Below, in pieces: positions 5,620 through 61,804 of a DNA stretch of 64,000 bases. The position numbers were made by a program, and so were the translations under genes. The stretch covers positions 3,530-67,529 of the forward strand of contig QHSI01000133.1 in the NCBI GenBank assembly GCA_003221515.1, read 5' to 3'. The notes beneath the pieces were generated by a model. It worked only from the letters and a program-made list of their open reading frames with translations, was not told the origin of the DNA and did not search any database. Position 1 is the stretch's first letter. Each line of letters begins with the position of its first letter. This DNA is from Candidatus Rokuibacteriota bacterium (lineage in GTDB: Bacteria; Methylomirabilota; Methylomirabilia; Rokubacteriales; CSP1-6).

Positions 5620-5670
5620 GCCGTGCCTCGGCCCGCGGGGTCCCGCCCCGCGACGGCTTGCGGCGCGGAC
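5620..5670 (+). repeat. REP-like GC-rich palindromic element, copy 1
   Basis: gccgtgcctcggcccgcggggtcccgccccgcgacggcttgcggcgcggac; shares consensus GCCTCGGCCGGCGGGGCCCCAGCCCCGCGACGGCCTGCGGCGCGCAC with copies at 20691, 37517, 38268, 42291, 42594, 42657; sits between convergent gene ends. Confidence 0.65.
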
Positions 5671-5671
5671 A

Positions 5672-6142
5672 TCACGCCATCGTCAGTCCGCGTCGCGCCA
5701 GCTCGCCCTCGAGATTCAGCTCGCTGGTCCGGGCCGGCACGCCGTCGGGCACCGTCCAGAAGATCTCGAACTCGAGCCCATCCGGATCCTTGGCGTACAG
5801 CGAGAGGCTGACGCCGTGGTCGGAAGAACCGACGAGCGCGCGGGCTTCGATCAAGCGTTTCCGGGCACGGGCCAGGTCGGGCAGCTCGTCGACCTCCCAC
5901 GCCGCGTGGTACATGCGCGCCACGCGCTCGTCGGGGCGCGCGACGCCGGCTTGCTCGAAGAGGCCGAGGTGGTGGTCGTCGGCGCTGCCGGGGATCTTCA
6001 GGAAGGCCGCGTTCGGATATCGCTTCGTCACCTCGAAGCCCACGACGTCGCAGTAGAAGCGCACGCTGCGCTCGACGTCGGAGACCCAGAGCACCAGGTG
6101 CTGCAGCCGCTTGAGTCCCGTCCCCCGCGCGGTCGCGCTCAC
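5672..6142 (-). CDS. VOC / glyoxalase family protein
   Basis: In-frame part of ORF 5672..6187 starting at GTG 6142 (GGAGG 7 nt upstream; GTGA overlap with upstream stop); HLVLWVSDVERSVRFY glyoxalase-type N-terminus. Confidence 0.65.
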   Translation of the reverse strand: MSATARGTGLKRLQHLVLWVSDVERSVRFYCDVVGFEVTKRYPNAAFLKIPGSADDHHLGLFEQAGVARPDERVARMYHAAWEVDELPDLARARKRLIEARALVGSSDHGVSLSLYAKDPDGLEFEIFWTVPDGVPARTSELNLEGELARRGLTMA

Positions 6143-13343: not shown

Positions 13344-13416
13344 GCGCGCCTCCGGCGCGACATGCCCGCGCGCCTCCGCCGCGACACGTCCGCGCGCCTA
13401 CGGCGCGACACGGAAG
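13344..13416. repeat. three tandem ~24-nt units, each an imperfect hairpin (GCGCGCC-tcc-GGCGCGAC), between copC stop and AKR start
   Basis: gcgcgcctccggcgcgacatgcc / cgcgcgcctccgccgcgacacgtcc / gcgcgcctacggcgcgacacggaag; last unit overlaps the copC stop codon. Confidence 0.6.
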
Positions 13417-20645: not shown

Positions 20646-20690
20646 CGGCGAATCCCCTTTGTTCATCGCGGCACCGCCTTGTTCATCGCC

Positions 20691-20740
20691 GCGCCTCGGC
20701 CGGCGGGGCCCCAGCCCCGCGACGGCCTGCAGCGCGCACC
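20691..20740 (+). repeat. REP-like element, copy 2
   Basis: gcgcctcggccggcggggccccagccccgcgacggcctgcagcgcgcacc in the divergent intergenic region; preceded by a duplicated GTTCATCGC (20661-20669, 20681-20689) plus a duplicated element-end fragment gcaccgcctt. Confidence 0.65.
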
Positions 20741-27170: not shown

Positions 27171-27310
27171 GCGGTGCGGGGTCGGTTGGCGGTAGCCCCC
27201 CGGCGGCCTGTGTAGTCAGGGTTGTCCCGAGATGAACCCGCACAGATCGAACCTGACGGGTGTTGGCTACCAGGCCGCTGGGGGGCTACCGCCAACCGAC
27301 CCCGCACCGC
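27171..27310. repeat. perfect 31-bp inverted repeat (arms 27171-27201 and 27280-27310) separated by 78 nt
   Basis: gcggtgcggggtcggttggcggtagcccccc ... ggggggctaccgccaaccgaccccgcaccgc; lies between convergent zwf and lipoprotein genes. Confidence 0.7.
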
Positions 27311-27385
27311 GGGCGCGAACGCGGCCGGCGACCAGGCCGCTGGGGGCCTACCGCCATCCCGCCCCGGACCGCGGGCGCAGACGCG
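27269..27385. repeat. two tandem ~55-nt units related to the inverted-repeat arm
   Basis: accaggccgctggggggctaccgccaaccgaccccgcaccgcgggcgcgaacgcgg / accaggccgctgggggcctaccgccatcccgccccggaccgcgggcgcagacgcg. Confidence 0.6.
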
Positions 27386-37611: not shown

Positions 37612-38262
37612 GTGGCCGCCAGAGTTCGTACCGTCTATCGGGCATGGTCCGCGGCCTCGGGCCGGATTCGGGTAACCGACCGCGGCGCGGAGCGCCGCCT
37701 CATCGTCCGCGGGGACACGCTCTCGATCTACCGTACCGACGGCAACTGGACGCCGGTGCGCCGCGAGTACTGGTGGAAGGCGCTCGAGGTCGTCGACATC
37801 CCGCGGCGGCCATCGGCCCTGCTCGTCGGGCTGGGTGGCGGCACACAGATCCACCTGCTGCACCAGGTGGCCGCGCCACGCCTCATCACGGTGATCGAGC
37901 ACGATCCGATCATCGTGCGCATCGCGCGCGAGTGGTTCGGCCTCGATCGGATCACTCGGCTGGAGATCCTCTGCACGGACGCCGAAACCGCGATCCGGGG
38001 GCTGGCGCGCGCGGGGCGACGGTTCGACTACGTCATGGACGACGTCAGCTACGCCGACGCGCCGCTGATCGCACTGCCGAAGCTGCTGACGCTCGCGCCG
38101 CTGGTGGCGCGCCGCGGCTCGCTCGTCGTGAACCGCCACCGCAACGGCGACCCGCGAGTGCTGGCCCGCGCGCTCCGGTTCTACTTCCGACGAGTGCGGA
38201 TCCGCCGCATACGACGCACGGGCGAGAACACGCTGATCTGCTGCGCCGGGTCCATGTATTAG
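37612..38262 (+). CDS. spermidine-synthase-like methyltransferase-fold protein
   Basis: In-frame part of ORF 37573..38262 from GTG 37612 (start uncertain; the ATG at 37573 would overlap the REP copy); LLVGLGGGTQIHLL, VIEHDPIIV, DYVMDD spermidine-synthase-type motifs. Confidence 0.55.
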   Translation: MAARVRTVYRAWSAASGRIRVTDRGAERRLIVRGDTLSIYRTDGNWTPVRREYWWKALEVVDIPRRPSALLVGLGGGTQIHLLHQVAAPRLITVIEHDPIIVRIAREWFGLDRITRLEILCTDAETAIRGLARAGRRFDYVMDDVSYADAPLIALPKLLTLAPLVARRGSLVVNRHRNGDPRVLARALRFYFRRVRIRRIRRTGENTLICCAGSMY

Positions 38263-38267
38263 CTCGC

Positions 38268-38321
38268 CTCGGCTGGCGGGGCCCCAGCCCCGCGACAGCC
38301 TGCGGCTCGCACGACCACTTG
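38268..38321 (+). repeat. REP-like element, copy 4, flanked by 9-bp direct repeats TTAGCTCGC (38259-38267 and 38322-38330)
   Basis: ctcggctggcggggccccagccccgcgacagcctgcggctcgcacgaccacttg; the direct repeats resemble a target-site duplication; sits between convergent stop codons. Confidence 0.6.
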
Positions 38322-40523: not shown

Positions 40524-41681
40524 TCACGTGGAGGCGAGCACGGCAACGATCTCCGTGCCGAACGCCTCCGCGCGCCAGCGACGAACCCCGTCCACCGACG
40601 CCAGCGCGCCGGGATCGCCGGGCCAGGCCGCCGCGACCGCGCCGATGAGTCGGTTGGGCAACAGCAATCCCGGCTCCAGACCGAACCGGGGCGCCGCGCC
40701 GGTTCGCCACTGCCGGAGCGCTTCGATCCGGCGGGCGACCGCCCCGGAAATTCGGGGCCGCGGTCGGCGCTCGAGCACGGGCAGCGCATCGTCGGGCAAC
40801 GCCTGGGCGCGCGCCACCGCGGCCAAGATCACATCGCCCCACCGCGCGATCACCCGCGCCGGGCAGCCCACGATCTGCGCCATCGCCGCGCGGTCGGCCG
40901 GCGGCGCCTGCGCCAGGGCCACGAGCGTCTCCGGGCTCAGGATCTTGAAAGGCGGGCGGTCCGCCGCGCGCGCGAGCTGCTCGCGGAGGTCGTGCAGCTC
41001 GCGCAGGATCGCGAGATTGCGCGGGGAGAGCTCGCGGGCGCCCTTGAGGCCAGCGAACGCATTCGGGTCGGAGATCCGCGCGCTGGCCGGCTGCGCCGCG
41101 AGCGCCGCGCACTCTTCCTCGACCCACGCGAGGCGTCCCACTCGCGCCAGCTCCTCGGTAAGGCGGTCCTTGAGCGCGAACAGGTGCAGCACGTCGGCCT
41201 CGGCGTAGCGAAGCTGAGCTTCGGAGAGCGGACGCCGCGACCAGTCGTCGCGCTGCTTCGAGGGCGGCAGCTCGAGGCTCAGGTAGGTCTGCAGCAGCAC
41301 GTCGAGACCGAGGGCCCGGACGCCGAGAAATCGCGCGGCGATGGACGTGTCGAAGATCGACGTGAACGCGAAGCCGCGACGCTTGAGCTGGACGAGGTCG
41401 TTGTCGCCGGCGTGGACCACCGTCACGACGTGGGGTGCTGCGAACACGGATGCGAGGGACGAGAGATCGGTGACGGCGAGCGGATCCACGAGCCAGGCCT
41501 CGCTCGACGGGACGGCCAGCTGGATGAGCGAGAGGCGCTCCGGATAGTGATGGAGGCTGTCGCCCTCCGTGTCGAGGGCGACCTGGCCGGGCGCCCGAAG
41601 GCGATGTGAGATCTCGGCGAGATCGGTGGGGGTGTCGACCCAGCGTGACGGGATCGTGGCGATGGGCGGTGGTCCGGTCAA
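40524..41681 (-). CDS. rnd: ribonuclease D (DEDDy 3'-5' exonuclease + HRDC)
   Basis: ORF 40524..41681; exo motifs ALDTEGDSLHHY, HAGDNDL, YAEADV; C-terminal HRDC-like region. Confidence 0.8.
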   Translation of the reverse strand: MTGPPPIATIPSRWVDTPTDLAEISHRLRAPGQVALDTEGDSLHHYPERLSLIQLAVPSSEAWLVDPLAVTDLSSLASVFAAPHVVTVVHAGDNDLVQLKRRGFAFTSIFDTSIAARFLGVRALGLDVLLQTYLSLELPPSKQRDDWSRRPLSEAQLRYAEADVLHLFALKDRLTEELARVGRLAWVEEECAALAAQPASARISDPNAFAGLKGARELSPRNLAILRELHDLREQLARAADRPPFKILSPETLVALAQAPPADRAAMAQIVGCPARVIARWGDVILAAVARAQALPDDALPVLERRPRPRISGAVARRIEALRQWRTGAAPRFGLEPGLLLPNRLIGAVAAAWPGDPGALASVDGVRRWRAEAFGTEIVAVLAST

Positions 41682-42283
41682 GCCTTCGTCTCGCGGACCG
41701 CCTGCTCGAGGCGCTCGGCGCGTCGTCGGAACGGCTCGAGGCTCTCCTCGTGGGTGATCACGAAGAGCCGGTTCGCCTGGATCGCGCCGAACACCATGTC
41801 GGCCGCGGTCTCGGGCCCGAGCGTGCAGCCCATAAGCTCAACGCGCTCGGGCGCGCTCGCCGCTTCGTTCCTGAGGTCCGCGGGCCGATTGCGCTCGCTG
41901 GCCCTGATCTGCGTCGCCACCCCCATCGGGCACAGGATCGACACGCCGATCCCGTAGGGCTTCAGGTCCCCGCCCGGGAGGTTCACGCCGAGCAGCCACA
42001 GCGCGACACCTGCATTGTTGCAGAGCACGTGCACCTTGCCGAAGGCGGCGAAGGCGCGGTCGGCCGGCGCCTGGACCGACGCGAGCTCCGTCACGTCGGT
42101 GCGGACGCCGATCGCCTCGCCGCCGCGAGCACGCACCGACGCCACGACGGCCGCGAGGACACGCTCGTCGACGTCTGCGATGACCACCTTGGCGCCCTCG
42201 CGCGCCAGGCGATCGACCATGGCGCGGCCGATACCGCCGCCTCCACCCGTCACAACCGCGACCCGACCCGCGAGATCTCTCAT
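41678..42283 (-). CDS. SDR-family protein lacking the catalytic Ser/Tyr-x-x-x-Lys core (probable internally deleted gene)
   Basis: ORF 41678..42283, 201 aa; TGGGGGIG and NNAG present; sequence jumps from the NNAG region directly to the post-catalytic GIGVSILCPMGVATQI segment; ~65 residues including the catalytic region appear missing. Confidence 0.55.
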   Translation of the reverse strand: MRDLAGRVAVVTGGGGGIGRAMVDRLAREGAKVVIADVDERVLAAVVASVRARGGEAIGVRTDVTELASVQAPADRAFAAFGKVHVLCNNAGVALWLLGVNLPGGDLKPYGIGVSILCPMGVATQIRASERNRPADLRNEAASAPERVELMGCTLGPETAADMVFGAIQANRLFVITHEESLEPFRRRAERLEQAVRETKA

Positions 42284-42290
42284 TGAGCGT

Positions 42291-42341
42291 CGCGCCTCGG
42301 CCGGCGAGGCCCCTGCCCCGCGACGGCCTGCAGCCGCGCAC
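42291..42341 (+). repeat. REP-like element, copy 5
   Basis: cgcgcctcggccggcgaggcccctgccccgcgacggcctgcagccgcgcac, in the gap between the SDR start and the receiver-domain gene stop. Confidence 0.6.
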
Positions 42342-42829
42342 TACCAGCCCTCCGTTCCCGATGGCGTGCCGTCGCCGACGATGGGCTCGAGCACGGCCCG
42401 GAGCCCCTCGGCGGTCGCCGGAGCACGCAGCATCGCACGAACGCCGGCGGCTTCGGCCCTCATGAGGGTAGCCGGGCCCATCTCGGGGGTCAACGCGACG
42501 ACGCGCAGGACGGGCCTGCGCGACATGCTGGCGATTCGCTCGGCGTCGGCCAGACCGGCCAGTACGATGCTTCCGTCCTCAATATATCGCCGCGCCTCAG
42601 CCGGCGGGGCCCCAGCCCCGCGACGGCTTGCGGCGCGCACCTTAATATCTCGCCGCGCCTCAGCCGGCGGGGCCCCAGCCCCGCGACGGCTTGCGGCGCG
42701 CACCTCCACGCGCGCGAGCTCTGCCGGCGTCCCGGTGAGCACTTGCACGTGCGGGAAGAGGCGGCCCAGCTGCTCGGCCAGGGCCGCTCGCGCGGGCGCG
42801 TCGTCGTCCAGCACGAGGATCACGGACAT
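42341..42829 (-). CDS. stand-alone receiver (REC) domain protein carrying an in-frame 126-bp insertion of two REP copies
   Basis: ORF 42341..42829; N-terminus MSVILVLDDDAPARAAL is CheY-like; the central 42 residues (VRAASRRGAGAPPAEARRDIK / VRAASRRGAGAPPAEARRYIE) are the translation of two tandem 63-bp REP-containing units; phospho-acceptor region displaced. Confidence 0.55.
   Translation of the reverse strand: MSVILVLDDDAPARAALAEQLGRLFPHVQVLTGTPAELARVEVRAASRRGAGAPPAEARRDIKVRAASRRGAGAPPAEARRYIEDGSIVLAGLADAERIASMSRRPVLRVVALTPEMGPATLMRAEAAGVRAMLRAPATAEGLRAVLEPIVGDGTPSGTEGW
42581..42706. repeat. two tandem 63-bp units each containing a REP-like element (copies 6 and 7), in-frame inside a coding sequence
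   Basis: aatatatcgccgcgcctcagccggcggggccccagccccgcgacggcttgcggcgcgcacctt followed by a near-identical unit; 63 bp = 21 codons each. Confidence 0.75.
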
Positions 42830-42909
42830 CGCGCTCGAGTGTAGCGCGCGGCCGAGACGCGGCTATGAACAGTGATAGGATGCCCGAACGAGAATCGCGG
42901 AGGGCCGCA

Positions 42910-43235
42910 ATGTCGAAAGAGATCTCGATCGTTCACCATTCCGACCGACGCACCGACGTGATGATGCCGTACGCGCCCGGGATCGTCGTGCGCCGCGGGA
43001 AGCTCGTCTTTCTGTCCGGCGTCACCGCCGCCGCCGTCTATCACAGCCACCCGCATCGGCGACTCGATTCCTGACCGACGTCGGCGAGCAGGACGACTTG
43101 AACCGGGTGTGGGCCGCGTACCTCGGCGGCCATCTGCCGACGACGACCACGGTGGAGGTGTCGCGTCTCGCGACCCATCCGCGGTGCAAGATCGAGATCA
43201 GCGCGATCGCGGTCGCCGACGATGGCGGCGCCTGA
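42910..43235 (+). pseudogene. ridA: RidA (reactive-intermediate deaminase) family gene with internal deletion/frameshift
   Basis: ATG 42910 (RBS GGAGGG) gives MSKEISIVHHSDRRTDVMMPYAPGIVVRRGKLVFLSGVTAAAV then stop at 43072; +1 frame continues FLTDVGEQDDLNRVWAAYLGGHLPTTTTVEVSRLATHPRCKIEISAIAV (RidA C-terminus) to the stop at 43233-43235 overlapping the next ATG; ~40 central residues missing. Confidence 0.6.
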
Positions 43236-44134
43236 TGGCCGCGGTCGGCTTCGTCGGGCTCGGGGCGATGGGCGGCCGCATGGCCAAGCGGCTGCTCGAC
43301 GCCGGTCACCGGGTCGTCGGCTATAACCGCACCGCCGAGAAGGCGCGCGCGCTGGTGGCCGCCGGCCTCGTGCTCGAGAAGTCGCCGCGCGCGGTGGCGG
43401 AAAGCGTCGACGCCGTCCTCAGCATGGTCACCGATGACAAGGCGCTCCGCGCGATCGCGCTCGGGCCCGACGGCGTAATCGCGGGGCTGCGGCCTGGCGC
43501 CGTGTGGGCCGAGATGAGCACGGTCAGCCCCGAGGTCACGCGCGAGCTGGGCGCGGCGATCACCGCCCGCGGCGCCGCGCTGATCGACGCGCCGGTCTCC
43601 GGTAGCCCCATCACGCTGGAGGCCGGCCAGCTCTCGTTCATGGTCGGCGGCGATCCGGCGGCGCTCGAGAAGGTGCGCCCCTGCCTGCTGGCCATCGGGC
43701 CGACGATCACCCACGTGGGCGAGCTGGGACTCGCGGTGACGATGAAGATCGCCACGAACCTGGGGCTTGCCGTGCAGATGCTCGCGTTCAGCGAGGCGGT
43801 GGTCCTGGCGGAAAAGGCCGGGATCGCCCGCGAGCGCGCGGTCGAGGTGCTGCTCAAGTCGGTGATCGCGTCGCCGATGATCAAGTACCGCGGTCCGTTC
43901 GTGCTGGGCATGCCGACCGAGGCGCTGTTCGACGTGAACATGGCCCAGAAGGACCTGGGGCTGGCGCTCTCGATGGGCCGAGCGCTCGGTGTGCCGCTGC
44001 CGAGCGTGGCGCTGGTCGACGAGCTGCTCAGCGCCGCGCGCGGGCTGGATCTGGCCGACTACGACTTCGCGGTGGTGTTCGACGTGATCGCGCGGATGAG
44101 CGGCCTGCGGCCCAGCCTGAAGAAGCCGCGCTAG
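43235..44134 (+). CDS. NAD(P)-dependent 3-hydroxyisobutyrate dehydrogenase family, paralog 3
   Basis: In-frame part of ORF 43109..44134 from ATG 43235; MAAVGFVGLGAMGGRMA motif. Confidence 0.85.
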   Translation: MAAVGFVGLGAMGGRMAKRLLDAGHRVVGYNRTAEKARALVAAGLVLEKSPRAVAESVDAVLSMVTDDKALRAIALGPDGVIAGLRPGAVWAEMSTVSPEVTRELGAAITARGAALIDAPVSGSPITLEAGQLSFMVGGDPAALEKVRPCLLAIGPTITHVGELGLAVTMKIATNLGLAVQMLAFSEAVVLAEKAGIARERAVEVLLKSVIASPMIKYRGPFVLGMPTEALFDVNMAQKDLGLALSMGRALGVPLPSVALVDELLSAARGLDLADYDFAVVFDVIARMSGLRPSLKKPR

Positions 44135-60307: not shown

Positions 60308-61804
60308 CTACTTTGTCGCGCCGAGCTGGCTGAGGAACTCCAGCCATTGCCGGGACAGCCCATCCTTCGGGAAGCTGAGCGACTCGAGCACCGGGTGGTC
60401 GTCGTTGACCTGAGGCGCGGCCGGCTTCGCCGGCGCGACCGGTACCGCCGCCGCAACCGGCGCAGCGGGCGCAGCCGGCAGAGCGGGCGTGACCTGCACG
60501 ATGGGCTCCTCGATCGCCGGCGCCACCGACGCGGGCGGGGCCGGAGTCTCGATGCTGCCCTTGCTCGCCTGCGCGAAGAAGTAGGGGCGGCCGGCCGGCG
60601 CCTGCGGCTTCGCCCACACGGGGTGAGCGGGGGCCGGCGCCGGAACGATTGGCTCGGGTTCGACCGAGGCCTCGATGCGGACGGACGGCTCGGGGCTCAC
60701 GGCTTCGAGGGCGGACTCGATCGTCATCGTCTCCACAACCAGCTCGCTCACAGGCTCTGGCACGCGCGCCGGCGCGACCTCGGCGTGGACGGTGACCGTC
60801 TCGGCCTCGGTGCCGATGACGAAGGCCGGTCGTACGATTTCTTCCATCACGGCCTCGATCACGGAATGGGACGCACCGTTGAGCGGAGCTTCGAGCACGA
60901 ACGGAAGCGCGGCCGGAGCGGGCGCGCTGGTCACGATCTCGACCGGCGGCTCCACCATCACTGGCGGCTCGACCTTCACCGGAGCCTCGACCTCGACGGG
61001 CTGCTCCACCATCACCGGCGGCTCCACGTTCGTGGGTGGCTCAGCGGGAGCCGCAGCGGCGAACTGGAGAACCAGCGGCTCACGAACTGGCGGGGCCGCG
61101 ACCGGCGCGACCACCGGTGGCGCCGCGGGAACCTGAGCGACGGGCGCCGTGATCGGCGCCGGGACCACCGGCGTGACCGGAGAGGCGGCTTGCATGATCA
61201 GCGGAGCGAGCGACGCAACGAGGGGCGCGGCCGCCGCCATCACCGGTGCGGCAGCTGCGACCACCGGCACGGCAGCCGCGACGACCGGCGCAGCGGGCGC
61301 GGGAGACGGCGCGACGGCCTCGGCGGCGAGGACCCCTGGCGTCGACTTGCGGAGTCGCTCGACGAGATCGAAGTAGACGGCGGACGCGCCGTTCATCTCG
61401 AAGTGACGGAACTCGAGGCAGTCGATCTCGACGACGCTGAGCTGCTTGATCCTTCTCAGGAACGAGTCGGTGATCCGCTCGACGATGAACAGGATCCGCG
61501 GTGGTCTGGCGGCGGAGAGCTGCGCCATCGGATATAGGCGACGAATGGTGTCGGGGTACTCGAGACACCAGGAGTAGGCATCCATGACCCGGATGAGGAG
61601 GCCTTCGTCAGCGGTGAAGTCGAGGGCGATCAGCACGAGCGATCCCCTGGTGTCGAGCCCGACGAGGTCGATAGCCGCCTGGCCCAGCAGCAAGCGCGAG
61701 TCCACGATCTGCAGGCCGGGCTCGATGCCCTCGACATTCTCGGCCACCAGCTTCTCCAAGTCGCCGATGTCCTTGACTTCGAGCTTCCGAAACGTGGGTC
61801 TCAT
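60308..61804 (-). CDS. hypothetical protein: ~170-aa N-terminal globular domain followed by ~280 aa of Pro/Ala/Val-rich tandem repeats
   Basis: In-frame part of ORF 60308..61867 from ATG 61804 (GGGGAGA RBS); repeats such as VEPPVMVEQPVEVEAPVKVEPPVMVEPPVE are also visible as DNA tandem repeats around 60930-61030. Confidence 0.55.
   Translation of the reverse strand: MRPTFRKLEVKDIGDLEKLVAENVEGIEPGLQIVDSRLLLGQAAIDLVGLDTRGSLVLIALDFTADEGLLIRVMDAYSWCLEYPDTIRRLYPMAQLSAARPPRILFIVERITDSFLRRIKQLSVVEIDCLEFRHFEMNGASAVYFDLVERLRKSTPGVLAAEAVAPSPAPAAPVVAAAVPVVAAAAPVMAAAAPLVASLAPLIMQAASPVTPVVPAPITAPVAQVPAAPPVVAPVAAPPVREPLVLQFAAAAPAEPPTNVEPPVMVEQPVEVEAPVKVEPPVMVEPPVEIVTSAPAPAALPFVLEAPLNGASHSVIEAVMEEIVRPAFVIGTEAETVTVHAEVAPARVPEPVSELVVETMTIESALEAVSPEPSVRIEASVEPEPIVPAPAPAHPVWAKPQAPAGRPYFFAQASKGSIETPAPPASVAPAIEEPIVQVTPALPAAPAAPVAAAVPVAPAKPAAPQVNDDHPVLESLSFPKDGLSRQWLEFLSQLGATK

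Follow-up and report, generated by a model that had tools for sequence, protein, structure and literature searches.

Intragenic repetitive extragenic palindromic sequences (REPs) are short palindromes that lie in frame inside protein genes, giving 'REP-decorated' proteins; they belong to repeats that are otherwise intergenic, and they are transcribed (Di Nocera et al. 2013, PMC3733652). The REPs of that survey are 20–40 bp long, with stems of 5–13 bp and an unpaired GTAG or CGTC tetranucleotide, of which degenerate forms retain the first G. More than half of the intragenic inserts are dimers or groups encoding 20–30 amino acids (aa), and some clusters encode 43–82 aa. Rickettsia palindromic elements (RPEs), which also occur in frame in protein genes, are reviewed in PMC10969869. 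Here, we describe an insert of this kind in a Candidatus Rokuibacteriota metagenome-assembled genome (MAG). Within a stretch of 64,000 nucleotides (nt) of contig QHSI01000133.1, hereafter the window, two head-to-tail copies of a dispersed palindromic repeat lie in frame inside a small gene at 42341–42829 on the minus strand. The gene encodes a receiver-like protein that lacks a phospho-acceptor (the pseudo-receiver gene), and the number of repeat units in it varies among close relatives.

The locus resembles three described systems in different respects. As with intragenic REPs, a dispersed palindrome lies in frame in a gene, here as a two-unit insert encoding 42 aa. As with RPEs, a selfish palindrome adds a peptide where the fold is predicted to accept it. 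In common with both, the copy of the dispersed repeat is absent from orthologs, the reading frame is kept and the site is one that the fold tolerates; the exception is a frameshifted allele in contig L140 (L numbers denote loci and contigs used for comparison, P numbers homologous proteins). RPE-1, however, is ∼150 bp long and occupies dozens of genes per genome, whereas the Rokubacteria family is intragenic in one of 129 sampled clusters, and unlike the RPEs it forms a variable tandem array. Coding minisatellites, or variable-number tandem repeats (VNTRs), likewise have an in-frame unit whose copy number differs between near-identical strains, but the unit considered here is a captured genome-wide intergenic repeat and not duplicated host sequence. 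The phylum Rokubacteria/Methylomirabilota lies outside the survey of Di Nocera et al., and the case here documents that the coding array is polymorphic in copy number between strains. Our literature search found no paper linking Rokubacteria with such repeats. In-frame insertion of REPs and RPEs is already known; the Rokubacteria case adds an instance, but no new mechanism.

A tandem repeat array inside the pseudo-receiver gene

The gene and its two repeat units occupy the following positions in the window:
42341–42829, minus strand: stand-alone, insert-bearing pseudo-receiver open reading frame (ORF) of 162 codons plus stop (ORF listing, codon-position G+C content, homologs, AlphaFold2 (AF2) and Foldseek).
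42641–42703, minus strand: repeat unit 1, first in the protein, 63 nt, encoding VRAASRRGAGAPPAEARRDIK (…RRDIK), with its 28-nt core at 42663–42690.
42578–42640, minus strand: repeat unit 2, 63 nt, encoding VRAASRRGAGAPPAEARRYIE (…RRYIE), with its 28-nt core at 42600–42627.

The 162-codon ORF had been proposed in a preliminary description of the stretch, and the ORF listing confirms it. Both flanks of the insert have a coding-like composition in this frame, with G+C contents of 0.93 and 0.85 at third codon positions (GC3) and 0.44 and 0.59 at second positions (GC2); together with the existence of homologs (see next section), this composition identifies the ORF as a real gene. GC3 of the insert is 0.67, against 0.93 and 0.85 in the host flanks. 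A 286-aa plus-strand ORF over the same DNA (42015–42875) was rejected as a shadow ORF, its codon-position G+C contents of 0.60/0.79/0.82 forming a non-coding pattern.

Tandem Repeats Finder (TRF) reports the array at 42577–42706 with a period of 63, 2.1 copies, 95% matches and a score of 246. This period and the match to the family core bear out the earlier proposal that two copies of a dispersed palindrome, directly translated, make up the middle 42 residues. Each unit adds 21 residues rich in Arg, Ala, Gly and Pro, and one in-gene unit folds as RNA into a hairpin of −38.5 kcal/mol. The units had originally been placed at 42581–42643 and 42644–42706, which captures the repeat correctly but is one codon off the codon register; two unit registers one codon apart are both valid because a GAG codon borders the array on either side.

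Alignment with distant orthologs that lack the insert (120 aa), one of the checks first suggested, reveals a clean empty site. In L001 and L014 it reads …GAG CTC GCC CGC GTC (C/G)CG|GAC GGA AGC…, and the filled site reads …GAG CTC GCG CGC GTG GAG|GTG CGC GCC … CGA CAT AGT GAG|GAC GGA AGC…. The two sites differ by an insert of exactly 63 nt that has GAG at each end. This repeated GAG, possibly TGAG, is all that can be defined of a candidate target-site duplication.

Structure prediction places the array in a surface loop. In the AF2 model of the insert-free ortholog P0019, α2 spans residues 35–40, the following loop 41–45 and β3 46–50, and the insertion point falls after residue 41–42. Block means of the predicted local distance difference test (pLDDT) for the window protein are 40–58 over residues 41–80, which make up most of the insert (43–84). 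α2 is predicted to continue into the first eight insert residues, and β3 (SIVLAG, 87–92) and all downstream parts are retained after the insert. According to these models, the would-be active site lies at one pole and the insert, in the α2–β3 loop, at the other; the insert is not at the phospho-acceptor β3 region to which it had been assigned. The (βα)5 core is retained, and the low pLDDT is that of the insert.

Variation between units is almost wholly confined to the 9-nt tail and is non-synonymous there (H/Y/D, I/S, E/K). In this pattern, no protein-level constraint on the insert is apparent.

Orthologs, allelic series and a single origin

A protein search gave 33 close homologs of the window protein, and a profile search gave 157 homologs at E ≤ 0.001, mostly stand-alone proteins of 113–133 aa from Rokubacteria and relatives. 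The exact 162-aa window protein is PYM98532.1 (Candidatus Rokuibacteriota MAG), which is recorded from four contigs. Its 90% cluster holds 12 further members from NCBI, JGI and ENA assemblies, of which 11 are 162 aa long and one is a 223-aa fusion product. Gene order is kept across the fetched loci: CoA-transferase, DUF4124/Asp-protease, HIBADH and RidA genes lie on the opposite strand, and the order continues with the pseudo-receiver gene, an SDR gene (in some lineages), RNase D, a CoA-binding protein and EttA. The pseudo-receiver gene abuts or overlaps the next gene in insert-free loci, which suggests one operon.

The protein alignment and the DNA of 18 loci together yield an allelic series. 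Genes without a unit encode proteins of 119–133 aa (P0019, P0020, P0023–P0028 and P0030). One unit is present in many orthologs of 140–141 aa, among them the divergent L005; two units in the window, P0002, L006 and others (162 aa); three in L011 and, independently, in L138 (183 aa); and four in P0029, which also carries a C-terminal deletion-fusion. Two further alleles are partial deletions, both in frame. L016 and L017 have lost 27 nt between two CGC codons, and the 5′ arm of the hairpin is gone. L015 has lost 63 nt comprising the host α2 and the hairpin 5′ arm, with the REP-derived PPAEARLHIE replacing the host GTPAELARV.

The insert has a single origin. In a neighbour-joining tree built from the flanks alone, the insert-bearing genes are monophyletic in 293 of 300 bootstraps, and one ancestral insertion is therefore the simplest history. 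Members of this clade differ by a synonymous divergence (dS) of ∼0.1. Unit number differs even among contigs that are 99.2–99.6% identical over kilobases, and units are therefore gained and lost fast relative to point substitution.

A scan of metagenomes with a 30-nt invariant stretch of the gene as query, which is independent of gene calls, returned 13 contigs. Five carry one unit, one carries three, three carry none, one has a 27-nt partial deletion and one is cut inside the array; the remaining two, L139 and L140, are broken alleles (see below). The whole gene is readable in nine of these contigs, with an intact ORF in eight and a frameshift in L140. The two units of the window are distinguished at two positions, and the unit-specific variants recur in the independent contigs L134 and L140.

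The preliminary description had left a choice between a recently disrupted regulator and a repeat fixed as a coding insertion. Monophyly and the dS of ∼0.1 fit the second better, and the insert is not recent damage; 'fixed' nonetheless overstates the case for a gene that is weakly constrained, polymorphic for one to four units and represented by some broken alleles.

Three observations concern the edges of the array. Period-63 similarity extends ∼12 nt into the upstream host flank (ACGCCGGCAGAG vs CCGCCGGCTGAG, 10/12), at ∼42713–42724, where host codons T-P-A-E (gene strand ACG CCG GCA GAG) lie just upstream of the array. At that flank, insert-free orthologs have GAG (Glu) and insert-bearing genes CCG (Pro), an adjacent double substitution that brings the flank closer to the repeat and could reflect a short tract of conversion. 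The 63-nt deletion of L015 falls exactly between the two period-63-similar segments, one in the upstream flank and one in the array.

Four homologs from sources labelled 'src' or SRR (P0029, P0031, P0032 and P0135) join the N-terminal part of the gene, with one to four units, to differing parts or frames of the SDR gene. In P0032, an apparent deletion from the in-gene repeat to the intergenic copy, which lies 300 nt downstream, fuses the N-terminus in frame to the SDR start. These chimeras are either real deletion alleles or direct-repeat misassemblies.

A receiver-like fold without a phospho-acceptor

The ORF was initially described as a CheY-type receiver. Pfam, run on the ORF with and without the insert, gives no Response_reg match and only AmiR_N at E = 0.033, under threshold; the receiver claim was therefore examined by fold and profile searches. 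Among the homologs listed, two of 120 have a precomputed PF00072 match. At the level of the fold the claim stands. AF2 predicts a (βα)5 core for the window protein (mean pLDDT 73.9; block means 81–93 except 70 at residues 101–110) and a (βα)5 domain for the insert-free P0019 (mean pLDDT 85.4). Foldseek against the PDB places the atypical receiver domains of TadZ/CpaE on top, followed by many genuine receiver (REC) domains, with a probability of 1.00 for many REC structures and target-normalised template-modelling scores of 0.56–0.74 across single-domain targets. The family profile reaches CheY homologs in the PDB at E ∼1e-3.

The segment that carries the phospho-acceptor is missing from the family. 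In an hhalign alignment with CheY, the segment SDWNMPNM, which holds D57 (Asp57), faces an eight-residue gap, and HMMER alignments to 3cnb and to a CheY homolog have a gap at the position of the Asp57 segment as well. No conserved Asp occurs at the phospho-acceptor position in 100–108 homologs, which have L-T/A-G-L there. The segment is absent from every aligned member, with or without the insert, and there was therefore no phospho-acceptor for the insert to disrupt. In contrast, D9 and D10 (the acidic pair after β1) and T114 (the β4 Thr), in window numbering, are nearly invariant in the family alignment. Of the features that define REC domains, the family therefore has the (βα)5 fold, the acidic pair and the Thr/Ser at the end of β4, but neither a Pfam gathering score nor the β3 Asp. 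Judged by its alignments, the family is a pseudo-receiver regardless of the insert.

The N-terminal domains of TadZ/CpaE and AmiR_N likewise have a (βα)5 CheY-like fold without a phospho-acceptor Asp, and the best structural matches of the window protein are 4dad, 4dn6 and 4lda, at sequence identities of 15–20%. Unlike those domains, the window-family protein is a stand-alone domain of ∼120 aa, and the likeness of fold implies no link to pilus assembly or antitermination.

About 35 nt in the gene (window 42467–42496, minus strand, and adjoining positions; GTCGCGTTGACCCCCGAGATGGGCCCGGCTACCCT) have synonymous sites that are invariant in 12 of 14 sequences, rare codons included. This stretch contains TTGACC-N17-TACCCT, with sigma-70-like spacing, and might act as a promoter within the gene that drives the genes downstream. 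When the gene is compared with insert-free ones, dS of its C-terminal half amounts to roughly half the value of the N-terminal half.

The palindromic repeat family

The two in-gene units belong to a high-copy family. At ≤3 mismatches, the window contains its 28-nt core, GCCGGCGGGGCCCCAGCCCCGCGACGGC, five times, where 100 shuffles give an expectation of 0.00. The window holds six family copies in 64 kb, all in the same orientation. Four of these lie outside the ORF, three with the 28-nt core and one degenerate; they are listed here with a half-copy remnant:
42277–42339, minus strand: intergenic copy between the stop of the pseudo-receiver ORF and the start of a truncated SDR gene (core scan).
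42841–42870, plus strand: half-copy remnant (3′ arm and tail) in the divergent intergenic region upstream of the ORF (read against the family consensus).
38249–38311, minus strand: intergenic copy between ORFs, just downstream of the ABC-F (EttA-like) gene (core scan).
20676–20738, minus strand: intergenic copy with a core identical to that of the in-gene units (core scan).
5620–5673, minus strand: degenerate repeat copy (repeat-family comparison).

For the window copies outside the ORF, no reading frame that runs through the repeat has coding signatures at both its flanks. The window's clade has the copy at 42277–42339; L005 lacks it, and the two flanking genes abut there. L015 has an intact copy (272–299) at the site equivalent to window 42841–42870. 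The small pseudo-receiver locus has three separate repeat-occupied sites: the in-gene array, 42277–42339 and the upstream 42841–42870. Beyond the window, MAGs of Rokubacteria/Methylomirabilota, including a few that are labelled Binatia, contain the exact 28-mer in at least 113 stretches.

The family consensus, in the strand sense that it has in the pseudo-receiver gene, is GTGCGCGCCGCAGGCCGTCGCGGGGCTGGGGCCCCGCCGGCCGAGGCGCGCCTATGAAT. The element is a 49-nt imperfect palindrome with stems of 7+5+7 bp, followed by a short, less G+C-rich tail, and the whole unit is 59–66 nt long. The consensus folds into a hairpin of three stem segments (−42.8 kcal/mol, z −3.25). Compensatory pairs occur in the outer stem (T–A six times at pair 4–50 and A–T four times at pair 13–42), and one outer-stem pair is C–G in 65 copies and U·G in 65, the latter pairing solely in the sense strand. 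Between co-directional genes, the sense orientation is found 40 times against 10.

The family shares with REPs an imperfect palindrome that forms a stem-loop, a high copy number and a dispersed, overwhelmingly intergenic distribution. It differs from them in three ways. The palindrome is larger, at 49 nt, with a composite stem of ∼19 bp against REP stems of 5–13 bp. The unpaired head is cATAG/ATAA, whose positions are ∼67–71% conserved and whose first base is A, against the GTAG/CGTC of REPs. Finally, all 17 clusters that contain doublets have them head-to-tail, whereas inverted dimers predominate among published REPs; with 17 of 17 direct and none inverted, the family lacks the inverted doublets that define REPINs.

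The doublets have periods of 59–66 nt, with a mode of 63, and lie at many unrelated intergenic sites, including loci L028, L029, L035, L040, L046, L051, L061, L067, L076, L088 and L093, as well as L101, L104, L125 and L127. A tblastn search of the pseudo-receiver gene against 113 repeat-bearing genome loci gave no match; the other 63-bp doublets are therefore at different loci and not in orthologs. Because the 63-nt period is common to the family, it is not the product of selection for the reading frame. Moreover, in any one of the three sense frames, 54–80% of the family's copies contain no stop codon. With a modal period of 63 and stop-free copies this frequent, an ORF-preserving insertion is not improbable.

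Such insertions are nevertheless rare, as was suspected from the window alone. In a census of 129 clusters, one (the window gene) has a one-frame coding signature on both flanks, and in 128 no such signature runs through the repeat. A cruder census of ORFs running through the repeat flagged five other clusters, none of which we accepted as intragenic, judging by flank G+C composition and not individually. Three have the antisense pattern on both flanks (first-position G+C content (GC1) 0.82–0.90, GC3 0.70–0.79); the other two have it on the right flank alone, and their flanks disagree.

Searches for known elements were negative. Rfam (E ≤ 1) over 42000–43000 returned nothing on the repeat and one chance match to a miRNA model elsewhere, and a consensus terminator/promoter scan over 41500–43300 found no terminator at the repeat units. 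No REP-associated tyrosine transposase (RAYT), the IS200/IS605-type Y1 enzyme whose gene REPs flank, was found in ∼1 Mb of repeat-bearing loci plus the window, as judged by tblastn with an approximate RAYT-like consensus and by HUH/NPxRA motifs, a weak query applied to partial genomes.

Origin and fate of the insert

We propose that a high-copy Rokubacteria palindromic repeat inserted once, in an ancestor of the insert-bearing clade, into a pseudo-receiver gene under weak constraint. It landed in the α2–β3 loop in its usual orientation, the family being normally intergenic and usually in sense within operons. The ORF remained open because the inserted unit has 63 nt and no stop codon in that frame. 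The peptide that it encodes is predicted to extend α2 briefly and then to be disordered, leaving the (βα)5 core intact. The array later expanded and contracted in 63-nt steps (one, two, three and four copies) and underwent partial deletions, the likeliest routes for copy changes being slippage or unequal recombination of the head-to-tail copies. In our judgment the insert is probably a tolerated, neutral-to-slightly-deleterious passenger and not an adapted module; it shows no sign of a gained function. We infer that its frame has been kept mainly because the natural tandem period of the family is 63.

Several observations weigh against a harmless passenger in a working gene. Ratios of nonsynonymous to synonymous rates (dN/dS; Nei–Gojobori, NG86) over the flanks are 0.8–1.25 among the three insert-bearing lineages, namely the window clade, L005 and L015 (7–11 synonymous and 20–25 nonsynonymous differences). 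They are 0.35–0.7 in pairs that include an insert-free gene, and 0.10–0.25 for RidA, RNase D, HIBADH and the CoA-binding gene in the same genome pairs. On these ratios the gene is weakly constrained everywhere and looks unconstrained in the insert-bearing clade. Two natural alleles are broken: L139, with two units, has lost its 5′ end, including the start codon and promoter region, and L140, otherwise window-like, has a 10-nt deletion in unit 2 that shifts the frame and shortens the ORF to 109 aa. Lastly, the three hairpin-arm substitutions in the in-gene units all preserve pairing (two G·U wobbles and one A·T), an anecdotal hint, from three events, of selection on structure instead of pure neutrality.

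The strongest alternative is that the gene is already dead in the insert-bearing clade, its ORF being open only through 63-nt steps and the rarity of stop mutations in G+C-rich sequence. A dN/dS of ∼1 in that clade against 0.10–0.25 in the neighbours agrees with this, as do the frameshifted L140 and the 5′-deleted L139, the deletion-fusion products P0029, P0031, P0032 and P0135, and the erosion of the surrounding locus (the RidA 109-nt deletion, and an SDR gene of 267, 201 or 82 aa or absent). However, the rise of dN/dS after insertion is not significant (∼31 nonsynonymous:12 synonymous against 54:36), the counts being too small. Conservation of the gene's C-terminal half is high in every lineage, both partial array deletions are in frame (27 nt in L016/L017 and 63 nt in L015), and eight of the nine fully readable metagenome contigs have an intact ORF. 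We hold a dead gene to be unlikely, but well worth keeping in view.

A role at the level of RNA or DNA is a much weaker candidate. The in-ORF hairpins might stabilise or attenuate the transcript and so tune the SDR remnant and RNase D, with copy number setting the strength. The sense bias between co-directional genes (40 vs 10), the 65 C–G and 65 U·G pairs of the outer stem, which pair in the transcribed strand only, the pairing kept by the in-gene arm substitutions, and the operon suggested by abutting or overlapping genes at insert-free loci are all compatible with such a role. Yet no terminator-like site scored in the region, the tail is not U-rich, and the two natural alleles without the hairpin 5′ arm fold no better than shuffles (z 0.20 and −0.21). 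From what can be read off the sequence, such a function is quite improbable. A strain-level contingency module, in which fast 63-nt changes would tune the length of a flexible linker at the α2–β3 pole or, via mRNA hairpins, expression of the downstream RNase D operon, while selection keeps both hairpin and frame, seems to us very improbable.

Collapse and expansion of tandem repeats are a known failure mode of short-read assembly. The assemblies are short-read metagenomes and the 63-bp unit is shorter than a read, but we can practically dismiss the idea that the duplication is an artefact of one inserted unit: the exact two-unit protein comes from four contigs, 12 of the 13 members of its 90% cluster are 162 aa long across NCBI, JGI and ENA (the thirteenth being the 223-aa fusion), the two units differ at two positions with the same unit-specific variants in L134 and L140, and three-unit arrays were recovered independently in L011 and L138.

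Neighbouring genes and other repeats

The genes on either side of the pseudo-receiver gene vary among lineages. RidA (Ribonuc_L-PSP; window 42910–43235), which is divergent from it, has a 109-nt internal deletion near 43055 relative to L007, L011, L005 and L140, with a short CGA repeat at its edges. The deletion splits the gene into two short ORFs, and RidA is therefore likely a pseudogene in the window; L140, which is 99.6% identical to the window over ∼7.8 kb, retains the 109 nt. The downstream SDR gene (window 41678–42283, minus strand; L005 4423–5226; L007 3484–3732) erodes by in-frame deletions. It encodes 267 aa in L005, 201 aa in the window and L011 (net −201 nt) and 82 aa in L006–L013 (a further −357 nt), and is absent in L002–L004, where the pseudo-receiver gene abuts RNase D.

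The window also contains unrelated repeats. A different G+C-rich repeat at 27187–27385, GGCCGCTGGGGGCCTACCGCCA, is present as two head-to-tail 62-nt copies (86% alike), with an inverted partial copy ∼80 nt upstream, and was not found in the other loci fetched. TRF further reports a 23-nt unit at 1299–1362 (2.8 copies, 90% matches), a 24-nt unit at 13344–13412 (2.9 copies) and several 18–21-nt arrays at 60432–61301, which are probably low-complexity coding repeats.

Implications

For annotation, the 42 extra residues of the window protein should be read as repeat-derived, and this 'CheY-like' family as one without a phospho-acceptor regardless of the insert. The repeat family itself departs from the textbook REP in its larger palindrome, its lack of a GTAG tag and its exclusively head-to-tail dimers. 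In-frame insertions of the REP/RPE type are extended here to Rokubacteria, an uncultured soil phylum. The locus provides a well-resolved natural series for one gene, from the empty site through one to four units, with a frameshift, a 5′ deletion and two partial deletions that keep the frame. This series traces an intergenic palindrome in steps, from its entry into a coding sequence, through tolerance in a loop, to behaviour as a coding minisatellite.

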